64,000 nucleotides of DNA from an uncultured Acidimicrobiia bacterium (GCA_964600365.1 CAZRJG010000002.1:36180-100179), one strand, 5' to 3'; positions 3,117 to 63,483 are shown, counted from the first letter of the stretch. Translations and numbers: made by a program. The notes: a model not told the origin generated them from the sequence alone.

Positions 3117-4247
3117 ATGCCGATTATCGACGACATCTACACCGCGCTCAAGGGCGTGATCGACCCCGAGTTGGGCTCCGACGTCGTCGAACTGGGCATG
3201 ATCCACGACGTTCGCGTCGACGGATCACACGCCGACATCGACCTTGCGCTCACCATCGCCGAGTGCCCCCAGCGAGGGCAGTTGGAGGAGGACACCCGAC
3301 GCAAGGCCCGATCCGTCTCGGGTATCGAGACCGTCGAGGTGCACACAACGGCAATGACGGGTTCGCAGCGGTCGGCCCTCATGGAGACCGCCCGCAGGAA
3401 GGCCCGGCAGCGGGCCGCGCCAACCGCGATCGCACCGACGACCCGCGTGCTCGCCATCGCCTCCGGGAAGGGCGGCGTCGGCAAGTCCACCACGACCGTG
3501 AACCTCGCCGCTGCGCTCTCGGGAGCAGGCCGCAGCGTCGGCATCCTCGACGCCGACATCTGGGGCTTCTCCATCCCTCGCATGCTCGGCACCCGTGATC
3601 GGATCACCGCAAACGACGACCGACAGCTCATCCCGGTCATGGCCCAGGGCCTCGAGATCGTCTCGACCGGCCTCATCACAGAGTCCGAGGAGACCGCGCT
3701 CATGTGGCGTGGCCTCATGCTGAGCAAGGCCCTCGAGCAGTTCCTCACCCAGGTGCGGTGGAGTGCCCTCGACTACCTCCTCATCGACATGCCACCCGGC
3801 ACGGGCGACGTCCAGATGGCCCTCTCGCGCATGCTCCCCCAGGCCGAGATGGTGGTCGTGACCACTCCCCAGCGCACCGCACAGAAGGTCGCAGTCCGGG
3901 TCGCCGACATGGCCCGACGGTCCTTCATGCCGATCGCGGGGGTGGTCGAGAACATGACCTCCTTCGTGTGCGACCACGGCGAGGAGTATGCCCTGTTCGG
4001 TCGCGGGGGCGGGGACGCCCTCGCCGAGGAACTCGAGGTACCCGTGCTCGGTCGGATCCCGCTGGACTCCAGCCTCGTAGAAGGCGGGGACACGGGCAGG
4101 CCAGCAGCCATCCACGATCCCAGCGGTCCCGCTGGCAGCGCGTTCGGTGCGCTCGCGACCCGGATCCTCGAGGTCGTCCCACCAGCGGAGGCATCGTGCG
4201 GGGTGCGGATCGAGGAACTCCTCGAGTCACTCCCGCCCCGGCCCTGA
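3117..4247 (+). CDS. Mrp/ApbC Fe-S cluster carrier ATPase with N-terminal DUF59
   Basis: N-terminal DUF59 (VIDPELGSDVVELGMI), Walker A (ASGKGGVGKST) and the CxxC region (FVCDHGEE). It is divergent from the HesB gene. Confidence 0.85.
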   Translation: MPIIDDIYTALKGVIDPELGSDVVELGMIHDVRVDGSHADIDLALTIAECPQRGQLEEDTRRKARSVSGIETVEVHTTAMTGSQRSALMETARRKARQRAAPTAIAPTTRVLAIASGKGGVGKSTTTVNLAAALSGAGRSVGILDADIWGFSIPRMLGTRDRITANDDRQLIPVMAQGLEIVSTGLITESEETALMWRGLMLSKALEQFLTQVRWSALDYLLIDMPPGTGDVQMALSRMLPQAEMVVVTTPQRTAQKVAVRVADMARRSFMPIAGVVENMTSFVCDHGEEYALFGRGGGDALAEELEVPVLGRIPLDSSLVEGGDTGRPAAIHDPSGPAGSAFGALATRILEVVPPAEASCGVRIEELLESLPPRP

Positions 4248-4285
4248 TCCCGATCGGTGTCCTTCGGCCCACGTCACCCAAGGAA

Positions 4286-4430
4286 GCCCTCGTGGCCCGA
4301 CCTCATCCTCCTCGACATCAACATCCCGAAGAGGCGCTCCGTGGAATCCCCGTGGTGACCATCACCACCTCGGGTGACACCGAGGACGTCCGCCTCGCCT
4401 ACCGGAGCGGCACACGCTCCTGTCGCTGTC
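4286..4430 (+). pseudogene. Remnant of a response-regulator receiver domain (frameshifted, N-terminus missing)
   Basis: Two adjacent frames read SWPDLILLDINIPKRRSVES(stop) and then IPVVTITTSGDTEDVRLAYRSG. These are the classic PDLILLDinMP and vvvLTtsgeeedv..ay receiver motifs. No start codon and no acidic pocket segment. Confidence 0.35.
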
Positions 4431-4522
4431 GGGGTTGTCGGGGAGCTCCACGATGCGAAACCAGCCGTGGCCGATCGTCATCGGGGCGTCGACGAGTTCC
4501 TCCCGCCTCCTGCGCTGATCCC

Positions 4523-5743
4523 TCAGGGACAGAGCCCTGCGACGAGCGGCGTAGGGTTCACCGCCGACCCACCGCCGGGGTGGTACTCGAAATGCAGGTG
4601 CGGGATGTGCTCGGGCGCGTTCCCACTGGTTCCCACATAGCCCAGCATCGCCCCCACGCCCACCGACTGCCCCTGCGAGAGCCCCGGGGCATGGGAATCG
4701 AGGTGCGCGTAGTAGAAGGTGTCGCCGGAGTCCCCGGCAAGCCACACGGTGAACCCACCGAGCGACGAATTCCGCATGCTCCTGACCGTGCCCGACTCGA
4801 TGGCAACGACCGGGGTCCCTCGGGCGGCGAGCATGTCCACACCCTCGTGTGAACGACCACCCGATCGGGGAGCGCCCCAGGTGTCGGTGAACCTGGAGTA
4901 GCCACCCACTGGACACACCTGCGACGCCGAGACCGCCACCTCCGTCGTGGTCGTGGTCGTCGACGTCGTGCTCGGAAGCGTGGTCGTCGTCGTCGTGGGC
5001 GCACTCGTCGACGTCGGAGTTGGAAGCGTGGTCGTCGACGTCGTGCTCGGAAGCGTGGTCGTCGTCGTGGTCGTGGTCGTCGAGGTGGCGAGCCTCGCCG
5101 CCTCCTCTGCGGCAGCGCGAGCTGCTGCTTCAAGGGCCGCCTGGCGAGCAGCTTCCTCCTCGGCGGCCCGGCGCATCCGGAGGTCGCGGTAGATGGCGCT
5201 CGCCTCCTCCAGGCGGAGGTTCACCTCGTTGGCCCGCGCTTCGAGTTCCGGCCCGACGATGGCGAGGTCGGCCTCGGCGACGGCCACGTCGGCCTCCAGC
5301 CGTCGGAGGGCGGCGATCCTCGCGTCGAGCTCATTGAGCATCGCCCGGTCCGACTTGCCGACCTCCTCCAGGTAACCAACCCCGGCCCCGGCGCTCTCCA
5401 CCGTCTCGCTCACGAAGAACGCGGCGACGTTCGCCACCGAAGCATCCATGTAGATCTCGACGGCGCGCGCGAGGGCAAGCTCCTCGAGCTGGCGCACTTC
5501 GAGCCGAGCATCGAGCAACGCCGCAGCCAGCGCGTCGGCCTCCGCCTCGAGCAGCGCGTCCCTACGGAGGGTCTCCTCCCACAGCCCGACGACCTCGTCG
5601 AGTTCTGCGCCGAGTTCCTCGAGTCGACGTTCGGCCTCGTCGAGGTCCTCGTCGGAGACCTGGAAGGCCGCCGTGGGCAGGGCGACGACGAGCACGAGGG
5701 CAACGAGGGCCAGGAGGCGCGCCCGCACCATGAGCCGGCTCAT
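4523..5743 (-). CDS. Secreted M23 family metallopeptidase (coiled-coil N-region, Thr-rich linker, C-terminal LytM domain)
   Basis: Signal-like start MSRLMVRARLLALVALVLVVALP. C-terminal M23 motifs (HEGVD, YYAHL, HLHFEYH). The central run TTTTTTTTTLPSTTSTTT is encoded by direct repeats. Confidence 0.8.
   Translation of the reverse strand: MSRLMVRARLLALVALVLVVALPTAAFQVSDEDLDEAERRLEELGAELDEVVGLWEETLRRDALLEAEADALAAALLDARLEVRQLEELALARAVEIYMDASVANVAAFFVSETVESAGAGVGYLEEVGKSDRAMLNELDARIAALRRLEADVAVAEADLAIVGPELEARANEVNLRLEEASAIYRDLRMRRAAEEEAARQAALEAAARAAAEEAARLATSTTTTTTTTTLPSTTSTTTLPTPTSTSAPTTTTTTLPSTTSTTTTTTEVAVSASQVCPVGGYSRFTDTWGAPRSGGRSHEGVDMLAARGTPVVAIESGTVRSMRNSSLGGFTVWLAGDSGDTFYYAHLDSHAPGLSQGQSVGVGAMLGYVGTSGNAPEHIPHLHFEYHPGGGSAVNPTPLVAGLCP
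4954..5066. repeat. Perfect 40-bp direct repeat (two copies, 73 bp apart) inside the Thr-rich linker of the M23 peptidase gene
   Basis: gtggtcgtcgacgtcgtgctcggaagcgtggtcgtcgtcg occurs at 4954-4993 and again at 5027-5066, embedded in (ggtcgtcgt)n microsatellite-like sequence. Confidence 0.8.
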
Positions 5744-6534
5744 CGCAGGAGCCTCACCAACGAGCCCCACAGGTCGGTGGTCCGCTCGAACGCCACCGCG
5801 CCGTCATCCACGAGCTTGCCGACGTGGGCGGCGACCGAGTGCGCGGCGATGGGGTGGAGTTCGGGGTCCACGTCGGCATACACGTCTTCGACGATCGCTC
5901 CGATGCTCCCGGCGCCCGACCGGAGGGCCGCGATGACCTGCTCCTCGCGCTCGAGCCTGTGGGAGATGTAGTGGTCGATCACCCCGGCGGGGTCGTCGAT
6001 CTCAGGACCGTGGCCAGGGAAAAGGCGCTCGAGCGTGAGGTCGCGCACCTTGCGGAGGCTGGCGAGGTAGGCGGTGAGGTCCTGCACCATCACCGTGGAG
6101 CCGCCCATGATGTGGTCCCCGGTGAACATCCACCGATCGAGCACGAAACACAGGTGGTCATCGGCGTGACCGGGCGTGTGGAGGACCTCGAGCGAGGAGC
6201 CGGCCACCTCCACGGTGCTGCCCTCCGAGAGCTGCTCGTCGGGCCGGAACTCGGCCGAGGGTGCGTAGCCCAGCGCCACCGTCCCCCAGTTCCGGGCCAG
6301 GGGGTTGGCCAGCGGCGCATGGTCGAGGTGGGTGTGGGTGACAACGACGGAGGCGACCCGCCTTCCGGCAACGACCCGATCGATCGCAGCAGCGTGCGCA
6401 TCGATCACGGGACCGGGGTCGAGCACGATCACCTCGTCGGCGTCGCCGATGACCCACGTATTCGTGCCGAGTCCTGTCCAGGGGCTGGGATTGGGGGCGA
6501 GGACCTTCTCGACCCTCACGCGTCGTGCTCCCAC
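5740..6534 (-). CDS. MBL-fold metallo-hydrolase (hydroxyacylglutathione hydrolase-like)
   Basis: VVTHTHLDHA (HxHxDH), HTPGHADDH; 264 aa. Confidence 0.75.
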   Translation of the reverse strand: MGARRVRVEKVLAPNPSPWTGLGTNTWVIGDADEVIVLDPGPVIDAHAAAIDRVVAGRRVASVVVTHTHLDHAPLANPLARNWGTVALGYAPSAEFRPDEQLSEGSTVEVAGSSLEVLHTPGHADDHLCFVLDRWMFTGDHIMGGSTVMVQDLTAYLASLRKVRDLTLERLFPGHGPEIDDPAGVIDHYISHRLEREEQVIAALRSGAGSIGAIVEDVYADVDPELHPIAAHSVAAHVGKLVDDGAVAFERTTDLWGSLVRLLR

Positions 6535-37023: not shown

Positions 37024-38445
37024 TCAGGATTCATCGACGATGGCACGGTCACCCCGCGACCACATCACCGCCATGAGCACCACCTGCATCCCGATCGCAA
37101 TGAGGAACGCCTCGTCGAAGAGGTCGCGGGCCCCGGCGCGGATCGAGTCGAGGTCGCCGCCGAGCGTACGAACGCGCCCCAGGACCCACTCGGTGAGCAG
37201 GGACGTGCCGAGGGCCATGCCCACGAGTCGGAGCACGATCACGCCGGCCGATGTCTTCCCCCGCTCACCGGGGGTCCGCCGGATCAGTCGATCGGCGGTG
37301 ATCGCGAGGAAGCCACCGAATCCCACGCCTGCGAGTACGAGTCCGGGGACGAGCGACCACTCCGTATCACCCCAGCCGCGACTCAACGCGAGTCCGAGGA
37401 GCGCGAGCGCTGATGAGGCGCCCACGAGGAAGCGCTCGTCCCACCTCGCTCCGAGACGTCCCCCGAGGGGCGCTGCGGCCGCCATCGGGATGGTGAACGC
37501 CGAGAGCAGGACGCCCGTGATGAGGGCCGCACGATCGACGTCCTCCTCGAGGAGGGTCGAGACGTAGAGGGGGACCGCGGCGAGGACGAAGAAGATGAGT
37601 GCGCCGAGGAAGGCATTCCCCACCGACTCCCGCCACCCCTCGACGATCACCCGGACCGGCACGAGCCTGCCCGCAAAGGCGACGGCGACGACACACCCCG
37701 CAACGGCCAGGGCCACACGGACGGGGAGTCCGAAGGGCCCGCCCGCGGCGAGCGCAACGAGCGCGATCCCCGACGCCCCGAGGATCGACCCGGGCCACCC
37801 ACCCCCCGGACGGGCGGCTTCGGGCTGCATCCCTCGTCGCACCACGACGTACGAGATGGCTGCGAGGGGGATGTTCACCCAGAAGATGACTCGCCAGTCG
37901 ACCACCTGGACGAGCAAGCCGCCGTAGAGGTGACCGAGCATCCACCCCGCCATGTCGACGCCGGCGATGAAGCCGAGGTCTCGCAGGCGACGGGAGGGGT
38001 CACCGGAGACGGCCGCCATTGCGGCGGGCACCACAGCGCCCGCGCCGAGTGCCTGGAGGCAACGCGCCGCAATGAGCACCCCGAGGGCAGTCATCTCGGG
38101 GTCGGGGCGGGCCTCGAACAGGCGAAAGGCCAGCGAGAGCACCCATCGGGTTGGCTCCCCCGTCGCCGTGGCCACGAAGAGCGAACCCACCACGAACACT
38201 CCGGTGGCGACGAGGAACGCATGGCGTGACCCGCGCCGATCGGTGAGGACCCCACCGAGCGCCACCGCCGCGGCATAGGCGATGAGGTAGCCGGTGACCA
38301 TCCATGACGCCGTGCGCAGGCCTCCCGGGAGGGGGATGGCGAGCTCCGCCACCACGGCGGGGAGCACCGCCGTGACAACGGTGAGGTCCAACGCGCCCAG
38401 CAGGACCGGCAGGGCGAGCACCCACCGGTTCACGGTGCGGTTCAT
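37024..38445 (-). CDS. MFS drug:H+ antiporter (DHA2-like; P55/Rv1410c-like partner of LprG)
   Basis: 14-TM profile; start at the internal Met MNRTVNRWVLALPVLLG. It lies directly downstream of, and overlaps, the lprG-like gene. Confidence 0.8.
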   Translation of the reverse strand: MNRTVNRWVLALPVLLGALDLTVVTAVLPAVVAELAIPLPGGLRTASWMVTGYLIAYAAAVALGGVLTDRRGSRHAFLVATGVFVVGSLFVATATGEPTRWVLSLAFRLFEARPDPEMTALGVLIAARCLQALGAGAVVPAAMAAVSGDPSRRLRDLGFIAGVDMAGWMLGHLYGGLLVQVVDWRVIFWVNIPLAAISYVVVRRGMQPEAARPGGGWPGSILGASGIALVALAAGGPFGLPVRVALAVAGCVVAVAFAGRLVPVRVIVEGWRESVGNAFLGALIFFVLAAVPLYVSTLLEEDVDRAALITGVLLSAFTIPMAAAAPLGGRLGARWDERFLVGASSALALLGLALSRGWGDTEWSLVPGLVLAGVGFGGFLAITADRLIRRTPGERGKTSAGVIVLRLVGMALGTSLLTEWVLGRVRTLGGDLDSIRAGARDLFDEAFLIAIGMQVVLMAVMWSRGDRAIVDES

Positions 38446-39110
38446 GACGGGGGTTCGACGACGTGGTCGGGGCCGTAGTCGAAGACGTCGATCACCCAAC
38501 GACCCGTCTCATCGGTGACCGCAACGCGACGGAACTCGCCCTCGTCGCTCACCCACAACTCGGCACGACCCACGGTGTCGGGGATGAGGCCGGCGGAGAT
38601 CTCAGAGAGGCGGACCGCATCCAGGTCCACGGCCACCTGGTGGAGGGACTCACCGGGAAGGCCATCGGCTTCGCCGCGGCCGACGTACTCAGGGTTCGTG
38701 AAGTCCTCGGAAAGGACAGCGGAGAGGCCATCGGCACCAAAGAGGCCTGCGACGGTGATGGCGTCCATCGGATCGATCTCGGACCACTCCCCCGAGAGCG
38801 GATCCTGCTGCCACGACCGGTCGTCGATGCTCGCGACCGCGGCCTGGACGATGAGTCCGCCCAGGGCGACCTTGACGTCGGTGTACACGCCCGAGGGCGC
38901 CTCGTACTCGCCACTCGCCGAACGGATCTTCCACCCACCGATGTCGCGCAGTTCTCCCTCGCGGGTCACCCTGAACGCGAACCCGTCGGCACGGAGGAGT
39001 GCATCGGCCGCCTGGTCGACGAGGCCCTGGGGATCGGGAGGGGGCTCCTCGGCGCACCCGGCGAACACCCCCGTGAACAGGATCGCGAGCACGACGAGTC
39101 GGGCCGTCAT
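38442..39110 (-). CDS. lprG: LppX/LprAFG family lipoprotein (LprG-like glycolipid carrier)
   Basis: Lipobox FAGC and the fold length. The arrangement, lipoprotein then MFS pump with overlapping stop/start, matches the mycobacterial lprG-p55 operon. Confidence 0.7.
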   Translation of the reverse strand: MTARLVVLAILFTGVFAGCAEEPPPDPQGLVDQAADALLRADGFAFRVTREGELRDIGGWKIRSASGEYEAPSGVYTDVKVALGGLIVQAAVASIDDRSWQQDPLSGEWSEIDPMDAITVAGLFGADGLSAVLSEDFTNPEYVGRGEADGLPGESLHQVAVDLDAVRLSEISAGLIPDTVGRAELWVSDEGEFRRVAVTDETGRWVIDVFDYGPDHVVEPPS

Positions 39111-49219: not shown

Positions 49220-49816
49220 ATGGACACGAAGGTCGGCGCGATCGTCACCCTCATCCTGTTCGGAGCGGCCGCCACGCCGCTTGCATCAATGGAGTACCTG
49301 CCCACAGCCGAGCAATCGCTCACATTCCTCATCGAGAAGGAGACGGCGCTCGTGGTCAGCTCCTACTTGTTCGGTCTCGCCTCCGTCGCCCTGGTCTGGG
49401 TGACGAGCCGCCTCCGTTCCCACATCGGCGATTCAGAAGGCGCAGGGACTGCAGCGGTGACCGGCGCTGGTCTTGCCGCCGTGGCCATGCTCGTGGGTCC
49501 GTTCATCGCAATCCCCCAGGCGGCCCGAGCCGCTGCCGGTGAACTCGACGCCATGCTGGCAACCGTCTCCATCGACCTCCTGAGCGTCGGACTCGGCAAC
49601 GTCGCTGCCTACGGCTTCGCGCTCATCGCAGTCGGTCTCGGGTTCGCTGGCATGCGCTCGGGGCGACTCCCCCGCTGGATCGTCGTCAGTGGGTTCGCCC
49701 TCGCCGCCGTGCTCCTCACGCCCATCCAGTGGGCGGCAGGCCTCATCGTCCCGATCTGGCTGGTCGCTACCGCCTTCCTGGTGCGGACCGACGACCGGGT
49801 GAAGGCGCTCGTATGA
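49220..49816 (+). CDS. Hypothetical integral membrane protein
   Basis: GGAGG SD 8 nt upstream of the ATG; 5-6 TM helices. Confidence 0.5.
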   Translation: MDTKVGAIVTLILFGAAATPLASMEYLPTAEQSLTFLIEKETALVVSSYLFGLASVALVWVTSRLRSHIGDSEGAGTAAVTGAGLAAVAMLVGPFIAIPQAARAAAGELDAMLATVSIDLLSVGLGNVAAYGFALIAVGLGFAGMRSGRLPRWIVVSGFALAAVLLTPIQWAAGLIVPIWLVATAFLVRTDDRVKALV

Positions 49817-50742
49817 ACGAGCGCTCCTACCGCCTCGCTGAGCAGCGCCTCTGGGCCTCCTATGGAATCGAGCCGAGCGAGCAGCGCGTCCGACTCGCCT
49901 GCACCGGTACCGAGGTGCGGGTCCAGGAGGTCGGCGCGGGAACGCCGATCATCTTCATCCACGGGGGACCGAACGCGGGAGCGACGTGGGCTCCGATGCT
50001 CCCGTACCTCGATGGGTACCGATGCCTCCTCCTCGACCGCCCGGGAACCGGCCTGAGTGACCCCTACACCCTCAACGTGGAGCACCTCCGAAGCATCGCC
50101 AGCCGGTTCGTGGCCGACGTCCTCGATGGGCTCGAGCTCGAGTCGGCCGACGTGATCGCCTCTTCCTTCGGCGGCATGCTCGCCCTGTACTCGGCGGCAG
50201 CCACACCCAATCGGTTCGATCGCATGGTGCAGATGGCGGCCCCCGCGATGGCACCGGGCTCACCGCTCCCACCGTTCATGCGGCTCGTCTCGATGGGATG
50301 GGTGCGATCCCTCCTCGATCGCCTCCCGCGGAGCCCAAAGGCAACAGAGATGATCATGCGCCAGCTCGGCCACGGGAAGAGCGTCGACGCGGGACTCCTC
50401 CCGGCTCCACTCATGGAGTGGTACGAGAAGCTCATGGAACACACCGAAACCCAGGCGAGCGACGGTGCGATCATCGGCCAGGTCGCGACTCCGTTCGGGT
50501 TCCGCCGCGAGTACGACATCCCCTGGGACACGCTCGGGCAGATCACAGTTCCGACGCTCTACGTGTGGGGGATCGAAGACGGCTTCGGCGGCGAGCACGT
50601 TGCCCGTCCGCTCGTCGAAGCCATGCCCAAGGCCGAACTCGTGATGCTCCCCGACACGGGACACCTTCCCTGGTTCGACAAGGCGGAGGACGCCGCACGT
50701 CTCAGTATCCAGTTCCTCCAAAGACAGCACGAGGACGCCTGA
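49813..50742 (+). CDS. Alpha/beta hydrolase fold protein
   Basis: HGGP oxyanion motif, nucleophile elbow SSFGG; ATGA overlap with the upstream gene. Confidence 0.75.
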   Translation: MNERSYRLAEQRLWASYGIEPSEQRVRLACTGTEVRVQEVGAGTPIIFIHGGPNAGATWAPMLPYLDGYRCLLLDRPGTGLSDPYTLNVEHLRSIASRFVADVLDGLELESADVIASSFGGMLALYSAAATPNRFDRMVQMAAPAMAPGSPLPPFMRLVSMGWVRSLLDRLPRSPKATEMIMRQLGHGKSVDAGLLPAPLMEWYEKLMEHTETQASDGAIIGQVATPFGFRREYDIPWDTLGQITVPTLYVWGIEDGFGGEHVARPLVEAMPKAELVMLPDTGHLPWFDKAEDAARLSIQFLQRQHEDA

Positions 50743-51377
50743 TGGGCATCGGGATGCGCTGGCTCTACCGGACGTGGTACCGGTGGGGGACGCCACCGTG
50801 GGTGATGGGACCGAGAGAGGAGCTGGTGCGCCTCCTCGCCGAGGACATCGTCCCCGTGGGTCGAGCGCTCGACCTGGGGTGTGGGACTGGTGCGAACGCC
50901 ATCCACCTCGCCGAGCACGGTTACGAGACGACCGGAATCGACTACGCCGACTCCGCAATCGACCGGGCAAGGGAGTCGGCGGCCGAAGCCGGAGTCGACG
51001 TCCGGTTCGTCGTCGGGGACGTCACGGACATGCCCGAGGTCGAAGGTCCCTTCGACCTCGTCGTGGACTACGGCACCTTCGACGACCTCCCCGATGCACA
51101 GCGACCGGCGGCCGTGCAGGAGATCCTCCGGGTCACCGAGCCGGGCTCCCGCGTGCTGCTCTGGTGCTTCGAGAAGGACCGGGACCGCTGGGCGCCCTTG
51201 TGGAGAACCGTCTTCGGCGGCGAGGGTTCCCTCCGACCCGGGGAGGCCGAGGCGAGCTTCGCTCCCTGGTTCGACGTGGAGTGCATCGGGCGGGGCGAGA
51301 CCGATCACCCCCTGATGCCACACTGGGCTGCGTACCTGCTCCAGCGGACCCACGATCGGGACGGTGTGCACCGATGA
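50742..51377 (+). CDS. Class I SAM-dependent methyltransferase
   Basis: Motif I LDLGCGTG and the acidic motif-II loop; ATGA overlap. Confidence 0.75.
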   Translation: MGIGMRWLYRTWYRWGTPPWVMGPREELVRLLAEDIVPVGRALDLGCGTGANAIHLAEHGYETTGIDYADSAIDRARESAAEAGVDVRFVVGDVTDMPEVEGPFDLVVDYGTFDDLPDAQRPAAVQEILRVTEPGSRVLLWCFEKDRDRWAPLWRTVFGGEGSLRPGEAEASFAPWFDVECIGRGETDHPLMPHWAAYLLQRTHDRDGVHR

Positions 51378-52243
51378 GGCTCTGGATCAAGATCCCACTC
51401 TGGATCGTCGGCGTGCTCGTCCTAGCTGTCGCATTCGCGTGGGGAAACGGCGAGCGGGTGCTCGCCCAGCGCGTCGAGCTGCCGGCAGTCGATACTCCAG
51501 AGGTGTCGTTCGACGAGGCGTCGCTCGCCCGGGGCGAGCACCTCGCAAGAGCCGTGTCGGCGTGCGCCGACTGCCACACACCCGACCTCGGCGGAAATCC
51601 CAAGTGGGCCCTCGAGCCGGGGTTACTCCCCACCCCGAACCTCACCCCGAGCGGCGTCGGCGCCGACTACTCGGAGGAGGATTGGGCGAGGGTGCTACGC
51701 AAGGGCATCGCCGTCGATGGCCGGCGCCTTCTGATCATGCCCTCCCAGGCGTACGCAGCGATGTCGGACGATGACCTCGGCGATCTCATCGCCTTTCTCA
51801 TGTCCGTCCCTGCGGTGGAACGAGAGATTCCACCACGAGACGGGAAGTTCCTTGCATCGCTGCTCGTGGGAGTCGGCGGATTCCCGACGGCCGACCAACT
51901 CGCCGGAGGCACGCATCCGATGGCACCCATCGAGGCAGTCGACGCCTCGTACGGCGAGTACCTCACGAAGATCGCTGACTGCGCTGCCTGCCACGGGCCG
52001 AACCTCGCCGGAAACTCAGGCCCAGGAGGCGCGCCCGGCGTGAACATCACGCCGGGCGGAGACGTCGACGAGTGGACCTCTGAGGAGTTCCTCACCCTTT
52101 TCCGGACGGCCCTCAGACCCGATGGCACCACGGTCGCGCAGATGCCCATCGCGGATGCCTATATGGGCATGACAGACGACGAGATCGAGGCAATCCGGCT
52201 CTATCTGCTCTCGCTCCCCGACCTCGAGGACGAAGGGCCCTAA
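51374..52243 (+). CDS. Membrane-anchored diheme c-type cytochrome
   Basis: N-terminal TM anchor and two CxxCH motifs (CADCH, CAACH). Confidence 0.75.
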   Translation: MRLWIKIPLWIVGVLVLAVAFAWGNGERVLAQRVELPAVDTPEVSFDEASLARGEHLARAVSACADCHTPDLGGNPKWALEPGLLPTPNLTPSGVGADYSEEDWARVLRKGIAVDGRRLLIMPSQAYAAMSDDDLGDLIAFLMSVPAVEREIPPRDGKFLASLLVGVGGFPTADQLAGGTHPMAPIEAVDASYGEYLTKIADCAACHGPNLAGNSGPGGAPGVNITPGGDVDEWTSEEFLTLFRTALRPDGTTVAQMPIADAYMGMTDDEIEAIRLYLLSLPDLEDEGP

Positions 52244-58418: not shown

Positions 58419-58718
58419 CTACTGCTCGTCGGTCCTGATGATCTTGTGGCGAACCACGGCGTCGGAGAGTCCCAACGCGCGATCGAGGTCCTCGACGGGC
58501 GCGAGTACCTCCGTCTCGAACGAGACGACCGAGTAGTAGCCCTCGGTGATGTGGTTGATCTCGTAGGCGAAGCGACGCTTCCCCCAGAAGTCGGAATCCC
58601 CGACGGTGGCCCCACGGGCAGCGAGCAGGGCCTCGATCTCGGAGACCCGGGACCTCGCATCGTCCTCGCTCATCTCGGGACGATGGATCGTCATGATTTC
58701 ATACGTGCGCAATGGCAT
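58419..58718 (-). CDS. rpsF: 30S ribosomal protein S6
   Basis: [14 protein letters not shown]...; GGAGG SD upstream. The coordinate may be off by 1 nt. Confidence 0.9.
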
Positions 58719-58898
58719 CGACCTCCTTCGGACATCCGCCGTGCGGATGGCCCCATCAATGGGGCAGGGGTTCGGATAGTGACTTCCCGGCATCGCCGGG
58801 CCCGCGAGGGTAACCGGCCGGGAACGGCTACCCGCGGTCGGGCACGGGGTGGCTTTCGCGACCACGGGGTGCCGACGCGCCGCTCCTATCCTCGCCGC

Positions 58899-59660
58899 AT
58901 GGAGATTGGAGCCCACGTCCCCTCGGCAGACCCACTCGGCGAAGCCGCCCAACGCAACGCCGACATCGTCCAGGTCTTCCTCTCGAACCCGCAGCAGTGG
59001 AAGGCGCCCAGGGAAAGGGATGACGCAGCAGCGTTGGCGGGTGCCGACGTCGACATCTACGTCCACGCCCCCTACCTCATCAACGTGGTCTCCCCGAACA
59101 ACCGCGTCCGCATCCCCTCGCGAAAGTCGCTCCAGCAGACCTGTGAGGCAGCAGCCTCGGTCGGCGCCCGCGCCGTGGTGGTCCACGGTGGCCACCTCAC
59201 CGATGCCTCCGAGCCACTCGAGGTGGGCTTCGAACGGTGGCGAAAGGCACTCGAGTCGCTGGACACCGACGTGCCCGTCCTCATCGAGAACACCGCTGGG
59301 GGCGACCGCGCGATGGCAAGGCGGCTCGACGTCCTCGCACTGCTCTGGGACGAGATCGGTGATCTCTCCCCGGGCTTCTGCCTCGACACCTGCCATGCAT
59401 GGGCCGGGGGCGAGCCACTCGACGAGGTGGTCGAGCGCACCATCACCATCACGGGTTCGATCGACCTCGTGCACTTCAACGACTCCCGGGACGCGTTCGA
59501 TTCACGTCGCGACCGACACGCCAATCTCGGCGACGGCGAGATCCCCGAGGACCAGTTGGTGAGCGTGCTCCGGACGGCCAACGCCCCGATCGTCGTCGAG
59601 ACCCCGGGCGGCGGCGAGGAGCAGGCGGCCGACATCGCATGGCTCCGCGAGCGCCTCTGA
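58899..59660 (+). CDS. nfo: Deoxyribonuclease IV / endonuclease IV family (AP endonuclease 2, TIM barrel)
   Basis: Metal-binding H/D/E pattern ([34 protein letters not shown]). Confidence 0.8.
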
Positions 59661-60328
59661 ACCGCACCCGCTCCTCGTTCCTGCGAGGCCTGCGAGACGC
59701 CGCTCCGATCTTCGTGGCCGTCGGGGCATTCGGCATGGTGTTCGGCCTGCTCACCGCACAGTTGGAGGGTCCGCCGTGGCTCCCATTCACGATGAGCGCG
59801 ATCGTCATCTCGGGGGCGGCGCAGTTCGCGATGGTTGCGCTGTGGGGTGCCGGGACACTCCCCATCCTCATCGCTGTGCTCGGCCTCTCACTCCGGCACC
59901 TCCCCATGGCAGTGCGACTGTCGGGCCTCATCGGGGAACGACCCCTCCTCACCCGACTCGGACTCTCCTACGTGCTCACCGACGAAACCTTCGGTCTCAC
60001 CCTCGCGGCCGCAGAGCGGGACGATGTCGACCTCGTCGCCTACAAAACCGCGGCCGACCTCATGCTGTGGGTGTCTTGGATCGGGGGCACCCTGCTCGGC
60101 GCAGGCGCAGGGGCCACCATCGACCCGGGAGCCATCGGTGCCGACGTCCTCTTCGCCGTGCTGTTCCTGTCGCTTGGGGTTCCCCTCATCCGCTCCCGAC
60201 GCGATATGGGAGCCGCCTCTGCGGCAGCGGTGTGCGCACTCATCGCCATCCCGGTCCTCCCCGACGCATGGGAGATAACCGGAGCGGCCTTCACCGCCGC
60301 GGCCGTGGGGACGGTGTGGCGTGGATGA
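59639..60328 (+). CDS. azlC: AzlC family branched-chain amino acid exporter permease
   Basis: [24 protein letters not shown]-terminal motif and 5-6 TM helices. The start ATG is 22 nt inside the nfo 3' end. Confidence 0.7.
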
Positions 60329-60629
60329 ACTCATCCTCGTCGGCCTCGCCGGGGCGATCACGTTCGGAAGTCGGGCCACGTTCATGGTGCGGCCCCCACG
60401 TCGGCTCCCGGAACCGGTGCGCCGATTCCTCGACGTCTTCCCCCTCGCCCTCTTCATCGCCCTCGCGGTGCAGGGCCTCGCCAAGCCAACTCTCGTCGAC
60501 GGCGCCTCGCCGATCCCCGCCGCCTTCGCAGCCGCAGGTGCCCTGGTCGCCGGCCGACGCACCGGGAACTCGCTGCTGTGGATGCTCGCCGGGGGAGCCG
60601 CAGGATACGTGGCGGGGAGCCTCCTGTGA
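60321..60629 (+). CDS. azlD: AzlD family protein (partner of AzlC)
   Basis: About 100-aa, 3-TM protein; GTG start overlapping the azlC stop. Confidence 0.65.
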   Translation: MDELILVGLAGAITFGSRATFMVRPPRRLPEPVRRFLDVFPLALFIALAVQGLAKPTLVDGASPIPAAFAAAGALVAGRRTGNSLLWMLAGGAAGYVAGSLL

Positions 60630-61117
60630 GGTGGCTCGTGCTGGGGACAGTGCTGCTGACCGCATGCACGGCGGCCACGCCTGCGACGACCACCGCTCCC
60701 CCGGCATCGTCGTCCACACCCACGACGGCAGCCGTCGGGCTCGTCGTGCCCGACCAACTCGGCGCCTTTCCGATCGGACTCGTCGTGCTCGCGGGCGAGT
60801 CGGTGCCCGTGGCCGTTGCCGACACGCAGCCGCGCCGGAACCAGGGCCTCCGCGAGGTCACTGACCTCGGGGACCTCGGAGGCATGCTCTTCGTGTTCGA
60901 CGGCCCCGTTCGCTCCTCGTTCACCATGCGCGACACCCGCATCCCCCTCGACCTCCACCACCTCGACGCCGACGGAACGGTCCTCGAGATCATCTCGATG
61001 GAGCCGTGCGACGGGCCGTCGTGCACCTTCCCGGCCTCCGTCGACTTCTCCTACTCGTTGGAGACCCCGGCGGGTGCCTTCGACCTCTCCGTGGGGGACA
61101 CGGTCGGACTTCCATGA
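60626..61117 (+). CDS. DUF192 domain lipoprotein
   Basis: Lipobox LLTAC, Thr/Pro-rich linker, DUF192-like core (AVADTQPRRNQGL...LGGMLFVF...LDLHHLDADGTVL); GTG start overlaps the azlD stop. Confidence 0.6.
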   Translation: MRWLVLGTVLLTACTAATPATTTAPPASSSTPTTAAVGLVVPDQLGAFPIGLVVLAGESVPVAVADTQPRRNQGLREVTDLGDLGGMLFVFDGPVRSSFTMRDTRIPLDLHHLDADGTVLEIISMEPCDGPSCTFPASVDFSYSLETPAGAFDLSVGDTVGLP

Positions 61118-62022
61118 GGGTGCGTAGCCTCGACCGCATGGAGCTTCCATTCGGGCAGGTCGTCGATCTCATCTCCGAGGCGGTCATCGTCGCCAAGGCC
61201 GCACCCCTCGACCAGCCCGGCCCGGAGGTCGTGTACGTGAATTCCGCGTGGCAGGCCCTCACGGGGTATCGCGCCGAGGACATCGTCGGCTCGGTGCCCG
61301 ACATCGAGCATGGCCTGTGGTCGGACTCGGAGATGCGCGAGCGGATCCAGGATGCCTTCGTGCACGGAAGGCCATACCAGTGCACACTCAAGAACACCCA
61401 CGCCGATGGGAGCAAGTACTGGGTGGAGATCACCGTCACCTCCCTCGATACCGACAGCGATGCGTGCTACTTCGTTGCCCTCGAGCGCGACATCACCGAT
61501 GAGGTCGAACTCAAGGCGGCGGCGCACCGGCTCGCCTCCACCGACCCGATCACGGGCGTGCTCTCCAGGAAGGCCTGGCTCGCGGAGCTCGAGCGCGCCC
61601 TGGCGCTCCGGAAGCGGTACGAGCGGCCGTGGAGCGTCGTGCTCGTCGACCTCGACGGCCTCTCCGAGTTCCGGGCGCACCACGAGATCGGGGCAACGAC
61701 CCGCGTGATCCAATCCCTCGCCGAACGCATCCGCCCCATCGCCCGGGAACAGGACGTGATAGGCCGCTTCGGGCACGACGACTTCGCCATCCTCCTGCCG
61801 GAGACAGACGGCGAGGCGGCACACCTCGTCGCTGAACGCGTCCGGCGGTCAGTCGAGCGGGTTCCCATCGATGTGGACGGCGAACCGCACCACTTCACCG
61901 CGAGTGTCGGACTGGTCGAACCGTCCGGGGAGCACACGATCGCCGACGCCGTCGCCCGGTTCGAGGCTTCCCTCGCCGAGGCGAGGGACCGCGGCGGCAA
62001 CACGGTCGTGTCGGGCCGATGA
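61114..62022 (+). CDS. PAS domain protein with a degenerate GGDEF domain (A-site RFGHDDF instead of R(Y/F)GGEEF)
   Basis: N-terminal PAS (VYVNSAWQALTGYRAEDIVG). GGDEF fold (SVVLVDLDGLSEFRAHHEIGATTRV...DVIGRFGHDDFAILLPET...ASVGLVE) with a non-canonical signature. Confidence 0.7.
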   Translation: MRVRSLDRMELPFGQVVDLISEAVIVAKAAPLDQPGPEVVYVNSAWQALTGYRAEDIVGSVPDIEHGLWSDSEMRERIQDAFVHGRPYQCTLKNTHADGSKYWVEITVTSLDTDSDACYFVALERDITDEVELKAAAHRLASTDPITGVLSRKAWLAELERALALRKRYERPWSVVLVDLDGLSEFRAHHEIGATTRVIQSLAERIRPIAREQDVIGRFGHDDFAILLPETDGEAAHLVAERVRRSVERVPIDVDGEPHHFTASVGLVEPSGEHTIADAVARFEASLAEARDRGGNTVVSGR

Positions 62023-62702
62023 GGCTCGTCATCATCCGCCACGCCGAACCTGCGTGGGCACCCGGAGGTCGCGCGACGACGGTGCCCGACCTTTCCGACC
62101 TCGGCCGCCGGCAGGCCAGGCGCCTCCCCGACCATCCCCTCATCGGGGACCGCATCACCGACCTTTGGGTCTCCCCGATGCCACGGGCACAGCAGACCGC
62201 CGTACCGGTCGCTGCCCACCTGGGACTGGATCCGACCACGCACGACTTCCTCGCCGAGATCGGAAGCCCGCCCGAATGGGAGGGGCAACCCCAGGAGTAC
62301 ATCGACCAGGTGTTCCGCGACCTCATCGGCCGGCCGCTCGACGGGTGGTGGGAGGGATTCCCCGGCGGCGAGTCATTCCGCGACTTCCATCGCCGTGTCC
62401 ATGACGGGTTCGAGCACGCCCTCGGGGGGATCGGCGTCCGCCGCTCGTCACTCCATCCCGAGCTGTGGGAGGAGGAACTCCCCGACCGCACGATCTGCAT
62501 CGTGGCCCACCAAGGGACGAACGCCCTGCTCCTCGGACTCCTCCTCGACCTCGAGGTGGTGCCGTGGGAGTGGGAGCGGTTCGCTTGCGCCCACGCGTCG
62601 GTCTCCCTCGTCTCGACCGCCCAGGTCGGGCGGGCTCGGGCATTCAGCCTGCGGGCCTTCAGTGATGTGCGACACCTCCCGGTGGGGATGATCACGCGCT
62701 GA
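62019..62702 (+). CDS. Histidine phosphatase family protein (phosphoglycerate mutase-like)
   Basis: RHAEP catalytic motif and a second His in the IVAHQG context. Confidence 0.75.
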   Translation: MRLVIIRHAEPAWAPGGRATTVPDLSDLGRRQARRLPDHPLIGDRITDLWVSPMPRAQQTAVPVAAHLGLDPTTHDFLAEIGSPPEWEGQPQEYIDQVFRDLIGRPLDGWWEGFPGGESFRDFHRRVHDGFEHALGGIGVRRSSLHPELWEEELPDRTICIVAHQGTNALLLGLLLDLEVVPWEWERFACAHASVSLVSTAQVGRARAFSLRAFSDVRHLPVGMITR

Positions 62703-62931
62703 TCGCGCAGGAGCCCCGAGAGACGCTTCCGCCTGTCGGGGCTCCACCGGCCTCGGTATCCGGTCATGCGCTGCTCCGTCGTGGTCTGGCTCGCGCCTAC
62801 GTTTCCGGGAGGCAGACATCCATCTTCGCGCAGAGAGTGGTTGCGGTGCCACCCCCTCTTTCGCGCAGATTTCGCGATCTTCGACACGCCCCGTCAGGGC
62901 GAACCCTTCCGGCCCGTTTACCCTCTGCCCG

Positions 62932-63483
62932 ATGCCCGATCCCCGCACGGCGCTCCTCGCACACCTCACCGAGCACGCCCTCCGCACCGACGGTCCGTTC
63001 ACCCTGCGGTCAGGCGCCATTGCCGACTGGTACATGGACGCCCGCCAGACCACGTTCGACGGCGAGGGAGCACGACTCGTTGGCGAGGCAGTGGCCTCCG
63101 TCCTCGACGATCGCGTGGTCGCTGTCGGCGGACTCACCATGGGAGCCGACCCGATCGCCGTCGCCACGGCGATCGCTGCCAGCGCATCGGGGCGGGACCT
63201 CACTGCGTTCTCGATCCGCAAGGAGGCCAAGGACCACGGCATGGGAGGGCGACTCGTCGGGCCCGCCCGTCGCGGGGATGCGGTGTGCCTGCTGGAGGAC
63301 ACGACGACCACAGGGGGCGCGTTCTTCGAGGCGTACGAGGCCGCGCAGGACGCAGGACTCGAGGTCATCCAGGCGATCTGCCTGTTCGACCGCTCCGGCG
63401 ACATCGTGACCGACCGCATGGCAGAGGCAGGGATCCCCTATCGCGCCCTCGTGGTCCCCGAAGACCTCGGGGTGTCATTGTGA
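62932..63483 (+). CDS. pyrE: Orotate phosphoribosyltransferase
   Basis: PRPP-binding motif VCLLEDTTTTGG; 183 aa. Confidence 0.85.
   Translation: MPDPRTALLAHLTEHALRTDGPFTLRSGAIADWYMDARQTTFDGEGARLVGEAVASVLDDRVVAVGGLTMGADPIAVATAIAASASGRDLTAFSIRKEAKDHGMGGRLVGPARRGDAVCLLEDTTTTGGAFFEAYEAAQDAGLEVIQAICLFDRSGDIVTDRMAEAGIPYRALVVPEDLGVSL

Follow-up and report, generated by a model that had tools for sequence, protein, structure and literature searches.

A clade-restricted string of six closely packed genes in an uncultured Acidimicrobiia bacterium is probably not a conserved functional module

The stretch of DNA considered here (the window) comprises 64,000 nucleotides (nt) from an uncultured Acidimicrobiia bacterium (GCA_964600365.1 CAZRJG010000002.1:36180-100179) with a genome of ~68% GC. 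Six genes follow one another on its plus strand between positions 58899 and 62702. The first, nfo (58899-59660), encodes a deoxyribonuclease IV (AP endonuclease IV) of 253 amino acids (aa). It overlaps by 22 nt with azlC (59639-60328, ATG start), which encodes the 229-aa large subunit of an AzlCD-type exporter, and azlC in turn overlaps by 8 nt with azlD (60321-60629, GTG start), which encodes the 102-aa small subunit. A gene for a 163-aa lipoprotein of the DUF192 family (COG1430/UPF0127) follows at 60626-61117, with its GTG start inside a GTGA 4-nt overlap with azlD. The fifth gene (61138-62022, or from ATG 61114) encodes a protein with a PAS domain and a degenerate GGDEF domain (PAS-GGDEF) of 294 aa, or 302 aa when read from 61114. 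The last (62019-62702), with an ATG start inside an ATGA 4-nt overlap with the PAS-GGDEF gene, encodes a 227-aa member of branch 1 of the histidine phosphatase superfamily. All six genes are co-directional, and the geometry of the open reading frames (ORFs) leaves no intergenic gap, the DUF192/PAS-GGDEF junction being a 4-nt overlap or, with the start at 61138, a 20-nt spacer. An earlier note on this DNA regarded the string as one translationally coupled unit and as a possible signalling or export module. The results indicate instead that it is likely a tightly packed string, specific to this lineage, of genes with independent functions, and not a conserved module.

The families that the earlier note assigned to the six genes are confirmed by both Pfam and NCBIfam. 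Nfo matches PF01261 (AP_endonuc_2, E=1.7e-38) and, over residues 1-253, the NCBIfam equivalog NF002198 with 393 bits against a cutoff of 244. AzlC matches PF03591 from residue 23 (E=5e-28, 98.7 bits) and AzlD matches PF05437 (E=7e-11, 42.6 bits), both above the gathering cutoff; the azlC equivalog TIGR00346 gives 38.9 bits, far under its cutoff of 332. The pair is an AzlCD-family bipartite exporter, with the export function predicted from the family, whose relatives include BrnFE and YgaZH. The window pair resembles B. subtilis AzlCD in its adjacent, overlapping genes for AzlC (PF03591) and AzlD (PF05437) of ~229 and 102 aa, and differs from it in lacking an adjacent azlB-like regulator and in being embedded between nfo and the DUF192 gene. 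AzlCD of Bacillus subtilis is an experimentally studied bipartite amino-acid exporter (10.1101/2022.07.07.499250; PMC10882977). The description of both families as poorly characterised therefore applies to DUF192 but not to AzlCD. The DUF192 protein matches PF02643 (E=4e-20); its relatives in the PDB are 3m7a and 3pjy only, both annotated as 'uncharacterized protein', and a literature search turned up no functional study of the family. By inspection, its N-terminus MRWLVLGTVLLTAC is a lipoprotein signal (MRWLVLGTVLL-TAC, lipobox LTAC). The lipobox Cys14 is invariant in the narrower of the two DUF192 alignments described below (A2), and most sequences of the wider one (A1) also have it, preceded by a hydrophobic stretch; the C-terminus carries two near-invariant cysteines. 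The phosphatase matches PF00300 (His_Phos_1, E=2e-29, 103 bits) from residue 3 and keeps its catalytic motifs, namely R7-H8 (RHAE), SPMPRAQQTA, GGES and VAHQG. It reached none of the NCBIfam equivalog cutoffs (cobC, PspA, SixA).

The fifth gene product contains PAS_9 and GGDEF domains according to Pfam. Its GGDEF domain is indeed degenerate, as had been noticed: GHDDF (61771-61785) stands in place of GG[DE]EF, with GHDGF in one ortholog (P0007). In all eight orthologs DLDGLSEFRAHHEIGATT replaces D-x-D-H-F-K-x-x-N-D-x-x-G-H-x-x-G-D, and other residues stand where three canonical GGDEF proteins have the conserved ND and GD motifs. Because the GG[DE]EF, ND and GD residues are lost in all orthologs, the domain is, judged by its residues, not a cyclase and would be unable to make cyclic di-GMP (c-di-GMP). 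The inhibitory site (I-site) RxxD is kept as REQD, five residues upstream of the motif (REQD-VIGRF-GHDDF), and is invariant in the orthologs. Since RxxD is retained, PAS-GGDEF could at most bind c-di-GMP or act as a scaffold. PopA of Caulobacter is a degenerate GGDEF protein that keeps the RxxD inhibitory site and acts as a c-di-GMP receptor. The window protein is similar to a PopA-type receptor in having lost GG[DE]EF and kept RxxD at the five-residue spacing; unlike PopA, it consists of a single PAS domain plus GGDEF (~294 aa) with no receiver domains, and is at most a candidate c-di-GMP binder. A light-oxygen-voltage (LOV) photoreceptor was considered for the PAS domain, which has a weak YtvA_fam match (63 bits against a cutoff of 250), and was rejected: the stretch equivalent to GxNCRFLQ reads GSVPDIEHGLWSD and has no adduct cysteine.

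Conservation of the gene order in related genomes, a check that the earlier note had proposed, was followed from three anchors: PAS-GGDEF, DUF192 and AzlC. The order is kept in one narrow clade, in which PAS-GGDEF is 72-95% identical, and is not found in 79 outgroups. PAS-GGDEF orthologs form eight protein clusters at 72-95% identity, the next best match being at 28%, and the protein search found no homolog above 28% identity outside the clade. Contigs with orthologs at 72%, 76% and 95% identity carry the six genes in identical order. The flanks are equally syntenic in the clade, with dcd, dnaB, rplI, rpsR, ssb and rpsF on one side and pyrE, a 250-aa ORF, an RNase H gene, uppS and a cation-efflux gene on the other. 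Because the flanks are just as syntenic, conservation of the order within the clade is uninformative about the six genes. A metagenome scan with the phosphatase protein found one 2.6-kilobase (kb) contig.

The DUF192 anchor gave a wider view. A scan of one genome per GTDB species found 80 loci, almost all in metagenome-assembled genomes of Acidimicrobiia. These loci were found with the narrower alignment A2, composed of the window sequence, six in-clade orthologs and four outgroup relatives, the diversity of the first alignment (A1) being too high for such a scan. Homologs of all genes were mapped by tblastn onto the 80 loci, of which L015 belongs to the clade and the other 79 are outgroups. 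The DUF192 gene of the outgroups is co-directional with rpsF, at a distance of at most 450 nt in 45/73 loci with enough downstream sequence and further away in 22/73, and panB lies directly upstream of it in 52/71 loci with enough upstream sequence. Further upstream, nfo is co-directional in 36 of the 79. In 15/16 outgroup loci the phosphatase gene has the opposite orientation and adjoins uppS and pyrE. Neither azlC nor azlD was detected within 10 kb of DUF192 in any of the 79 outgroup loci (0/79), even at E<1, and a PAS-GGDEF ortholog was likewise found in none of them. The closest outgroup, L035 (nfo 76% identical), has the order X- pyrE- HisPhos+ nfo+ panB+ DUF192+ rpsF+. No panB is present in the 64-kb window.

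Acidimicrobiia commonly have AzlC orthologs, at 50-58% identity. In three contexts (L095, L097, L099) azlC and azlD stand alone as a pair that again overlaps by 8 nt and encodes an AzlD of 102 aa, next to genes for a two-component system and inositol-phosphate synthase, or to aldehyde dehydrogenase, RibD_C and PFK genes. The fixed linkage of DUF192 and AzlCD to PAS-GGDEF that had been postulated is thus absent both from the 79 outgroup loci and from the free-standing azlCD contexts. GC content is uniform along the string and the nearest relatives of AzlC are from Acidimicrobiia; nothing therefore suggests distant horizontal transfer.

Several further observations concern these loci. Across the class (L016-L094), panB, DUF192, rpsF, ssb, rpsR, rplI and dnaB are habitually linked in this order and co-directional, a linkage much older than that of the string. 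GGDEF genes located before panB-DUF192 in six outgroups (L047 6820-8841, L082 6791-8797, and also L016, L046, L054 and L092) were considered as PAS-GGDEF orthologs and rejected, as they encode proteins of ~670 aa with a canonical GGEEF. These proteins contain RxxD, and their long N-terminal region is unlike a single PAS domain and appears GAF-like by eye. The seeming lack of upstream nfo-azlCD in L015 is explained by scaffold joins, the C-terminal 16 residues of AzlD standing right after a join. The L015 record (CP070681.1), labelled a 1.7-Mb 'chromosome', contains runs of 100 N approximately every 4.8 kb in a 20-kb stretch; it looks like concatenated short contigs, and neighbour relations across the joins are unreliable.

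The clade-restricted order would be the product of local rearrangement beside rpsF-ssb-rpsR-rplI-dnaB in one narrow uncultured Acidimicrobiia clade. In this scheme nfo, the DUF192 gene, the phosphatase gene, pyrE and uppS would be old neighbours of the rpsF-dnaB cluster that occur elsewhere in another order and orientation. The block from uppS to rpsF would have been inverted and reshuffled in the clade, with at least two inversions needed. The azlCD genes would be a self-contained two-gene cassette with an ancestral 8-nt overlap, which occupies the slot held by panB in other Acidimicrobiia, and the PAS-GGDEF gene would be a clade-restricted addition in front of the relocated phosphatase gene.

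The overlaps that chain the genes together are not unusual in this genome. Overlaps were counted from a simple codon-usage gene calling of the window, which gave 39 co-directional neighbour pairs. Of these, 19/39 overlap, mostly by 4 or 1 nt, and outside the string the count is 15/34 (44%). A second run, of three overlaps, is found at 49220-52243. Independent database gene calls for relatives gave similar counts outside the string, 5/10 in L007 and 4/10 in L001. At p ~0.44, approximately one run of at least five overlaps is expected for every three 64-kb windows, and many in a whole genome. The string is the longest overlap run in the window. Because ~44% of the other co-directional pairs overlap as well, the chain is unremarkable; it is no statistical oddity for the genome, and the overlaps reflect genome-wide compactness. 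The 4-nt and 1-nt stop/start overlaps that are the dominant junction type in the window are those of translationally coupled cistrons that use termination-reinitiation (ATGA, GTGA or TGATG). The string differs from the usual case in its heterogeneous gene content and in the 22-nt nfo/azlC overlap, which exceeds the distance typical of coupling.

The claim that every junction overlaps is correct for four of the five. Reading of the sequence gives clear overlaps of 22, 8, 4 and 4 nt, and gene calls in L001, L007 and L102 show the 22-nt nfo/azlC overlap as well. The phosphatase junction is ATGA in the window and TGATG (1 nt) in the other lineages of the junction alignment, and the phosphatase start at 62019 is forced, because the ORF has no earlier start and residues 7-8 already form the catalytic RH motif. 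At the DUF192/PAS-GGDEF junction the claim holds for the ORF geometry of this strain but is doubtful for the functional start. ATG 61114, which would create an ATGA overlap with the DUF192 stop, is found in the window alone among the aligned relatives. At this position L007 has TTG, which the database gene caller chose as the start; L001 has GTG, with an in-frame TGA two codons on; and L015, L101 and L103 have no start codon. ATG 61138 (MELPF...), 20 nt past the DUF192 stop, is common to all lineages, and most database gene calls give a product of 293 aa. Since ATG 61114 is not conserved and ATG 61138 is shared, the overlap is doubtful and the functional start of the fifth gene is probably 61138 rather than 61114.

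The sequence in front of ATG 61138 also points to an internal promoter. In Actinomycetota, transcription start site maps of Mycobacterium and Streptomyces have revealed leaderless mRNAs with a -10 element TANNNT ~7 nt before the start codon. In the window, TANNNT-N5-8-start occurs at 15/68 gene starts (22%) compared to 0.66% of all ATG/GTG, a ~30-fold enrichment, and all 15 of these starts lie after an intergenic gap (e.g., 3117, 22233, 26571, 31026, 38442-39110 on the minus strand, 39391, 58899 and 62932). Leaderless mRNAs thus appear to be common in the organism. The window shares the TANNNT-N5-8-ATG/GTG arrangement of Actinomycetota leaderless units, known here from sequence alone, at starts that include nfo, pyrE and the conserved PAS-GGDEF start. 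The putative -10 of a leaderless nfo promoter is TATCCT (58887-58892, plus strand), 6 nt before ATG 58899, with TAATCT there in L001. The putative pyrE -10 is an invariant TACCCT (62919-62924), in the arrangement TACCCT-N7-ATG. Within the string, a putative internal -10, TAGCCT (61125-61130, plus strand), is located 7 nt before ATG 61138 and is a candidate leaderless promoter for PAS-GGDEF and the phosphatase gene. Ten bases of the interval from the DUF192 stop to this ATG, CGTAGCCTCG, do not vary among the five lineages compared (window/L007, L001-6, L015, L101/102 and L103), in contrast to the bases on either side. An internal promoter is pointed to because this conserved -10-like hexamer stands 7 nt before a conserved start. 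The starts of azlC, azlD, DUF192 and the phosphatase gene are without TANNNT-N5-8. A TTTCGCGA motif shared upstream of nfo and pyrE was considered and rejected as not enriched (3 found, 1.7 expected).

Based on these signals, the string probably consists of two leaderless transcription units, nfo to DUF192 and PAS-GGDEF to phosphatase. TATCCT-N6-ATG would drive nfo-azlC-azlD-DUF192, with the downstream cistrons translated by termination-reinitiation at the overlaps. TAGCCT-N7-ATG 61138 would drive PAS-GGDEF and the phosphatase gene, coupled at ATGA or TGATG. Read-through from the first unit into the second is possible, there being no hairpin between them. Transcription would end at a hairpin at 62710-62745, and pyrE would have its own leaderless promoter. 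Translational coupling, which the earlier note had extended over all six genes, is therefore plausible within nfo-azlC-azlD-DUF192 and within PAS-GGDEF-phosphatase, and the conserved -10-like TAGCCT between them argues against a single coupled unit. A search for internal promoters and terminators, which the earlier note had named as refuting observations if they separate nfo from the downstream genes, yielded the candidate TAGCCT-N7-ATG at 61125-61140, no hairpin between the units and nothing in a consensus scan.

Alternatively, the six genes could form a single transcription unit driven by the nfo promoter, with a meaningless gene mix, a PAS-GGDEF start at 61114 in this strain that would leave all five junctions coupled, and TAGCCT conserved for another reason. 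In agreement, ATG in the window or TTG in L007 overlaps the DUF192 stop, the database caller used this start in L007, and no hairpin or gap separates the genes. Sigma-70-like sites and terminators were also not found inside the string, but the consensus scan is uninformative for high-GC Actinomycetota and detected none at nfo or pyrE either. Given that the four other lineages lack the upstream start or have a stop behind it, and that the invariant TAGCCT-N7-ATG matches the leaderless signature at the heads of units, a single unit is unlikely.

A second alternative is that PAS-GGDEF and the phosphatase form a new two-gene signalling unit in the clade, in which a ligand or c-di-GMP sensor has the phosphatase as its output or partner. 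Every lineage has the two genes side by side and coupled through ATGA or TGATG, the candidate internal promoter is common to both, the phosphatase catalytic motifs are kept, and the change in strand and position of the phosphatase gene coincides with the appearance of PAS-GGDEF. However, the phosphatase gene is an old independent neighbour of uppS and pyrE in outgroups that have no GGDEF partner, and adjacency within one clade is weak evidence; such a unit seems quite improbable. A more specific form of this idea is that a newly arisen, catalytically dead PAS-GGDEF with an I-site and its own leaderless promoter has been wired onto the ancestral phosphatase, to give a phosphatase switch responsive to c-di-GMP or another ligand. 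This would be a speculative and very doubtful step; if true, the placement right after the AzlCD and DUF192 genes would be functionally relevant. One translationally coupled operon that acts as a signalling or export module, with a PAS-GGDEF sensor regulating AzlCD export and/or the secreted DUF192 protein, is highly improbable. In its favour are the shared direction of the genes, the lack of gaps, an order found in every clade member seen and a degenerate GGDEF with RxxD that could be a c-di-GMP receptor. Against it, the linkage is absent from the 79 DUF192-anchored outgroup genomes and the AzlC-anchored contexts, which largely refutes the proposal, PAS-GGDEF is clade-restricted with no outside homolog above 28%, the flanks are just as syntenic in the clade, and a conserved candidate internal promoter splits the string.

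Some points weigh against a packed string of independent genes in two units. Five sequence lineages of the clade have retained the order, and selection may have contributed to this alongside recent common ancestry. The overlap count comes from a crude gene caller, which failed to call rpsR and rpsF and gave the phosphatase gene a wrong start. The promoters, the terminator and the translational coupling are read from short motifs and geometry, and leadered internal promoters may be present. Shine-Dalgarno-like purine runs at a useful distance are found before azlD and DUF192 only, which fits the other internal cistrons relying on reinitiation.

Upstream of the string, rpsF-ssb-rpsR-rplI-dnaB is encoded divergently on the minus strand, with the rpsF start at 58718 and a 180-nt divergent spacer to nfo. 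The upstream half of this spacer contains the rpsF promoter and 5' leader (58719-58812, minus strand), with a -10 TACCCT at 58807-58812 and a two-hairpin motif at 58719-58775. The motif, CCCCUGCCCC..GGGGCC AUCCGC..GCGGAUG UCCGAAGGAGG, shows conservation and covariation in front of rpsF in 72 loci from Acidimicrobiia. In its fold the Shine-Dalgarno sequence is base-paired and a CC bulge remains. An rpsF leader bound by the S6:S18 complex, and the operon rpsF-ssb-rpsR in Actinobacteria, have been described (PMC3895269, PMC3854524). The window leader is similar to that motif (PMC3895269) in its two-hairpin structure, conserved CC bulge, paired Shine-Dalgarno sequence and rpsF-ssb-rpsR order, and it lies outside the six-gene string on the opposite strand. 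It matched no Rfam 15 family at E<=10. A further hairpin in the rpsF 5' region, CCCGGCatcGCCGGG at 58786-58800, has two compensatory pair changes in L001 (CCCACCtgtGGTGGG); this additional stem, upstream of the S6:S18 motif, is specific to the clade. Further along this cluster, DnaB of the 72%-identity relatives L001-L006 contains an intein (Pfam Intein_splicing, ~4183-6036 minus strand; 579-617 aa), and DnaB of the window and L007 (421-459 aa) has none.

Downstream of the string, a 229-nt spacer separates the phosphatase gene from pyrE at 62932. A GC-rich hairpin (62710-62745) with a 10-bp outer stem (GGAGCCCCGA/TCGGGGCTCC) begins 8 nt past the phosphatase stop. It is nearly invariant in the clade. 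The 61-nt stretch 62700-62760, which includes a small adjacent 4-bp hairpin, has a folding energy of -31.3 (plus) or -34.4 (minus) kcal/mol, with z ~-3. The hairpin has no T-run/U-tract and was not called by the terminator scan; by its structure it is a candidate terminator usable on either strand. The spacer core (62703-62862, ~160 nt) is 83-91% identical across five clade lineages, compared to ~50% for the adjoining 62863-62905. The minus strand of the core gives the better fold (z -2.6 vs -1.3), and at three positions substituted in L001 it has G-U pairs where the plus strand has A-C mismatches. The core may encode a small RNA, specific to the clade and convergent with the phosphatase gene, or may be a 3' untranslated region or terminator element. 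The core had no credible Rfam match at E<=10, a covariance model of the spacer (R1) had no credible match in 80 outgroup loci, and a metagenome pattern scan for the element gave 0 matches. Rfam at the gathering threshold identified two tRNAs only in the whole window.

Finally, the analysis yielded three by-products and a general caution. The class-wide map places the DUF192 lipoprotein gene habitually between panB and the rpsF operon. Motif positions (TANNNT ~7 nt before the start) are consistent with leaderless promoters at the heads of transcription units, and a ~160-nt conserved noncoding element that matches no RNA family lies beside the string. Gap-free packing of heterogeneous genes is the norm in this compact, high-GC Acidimicrobiia genome, and such packing should be taken to mean functional linkage only if the gene order is conserved beyond close relatives.

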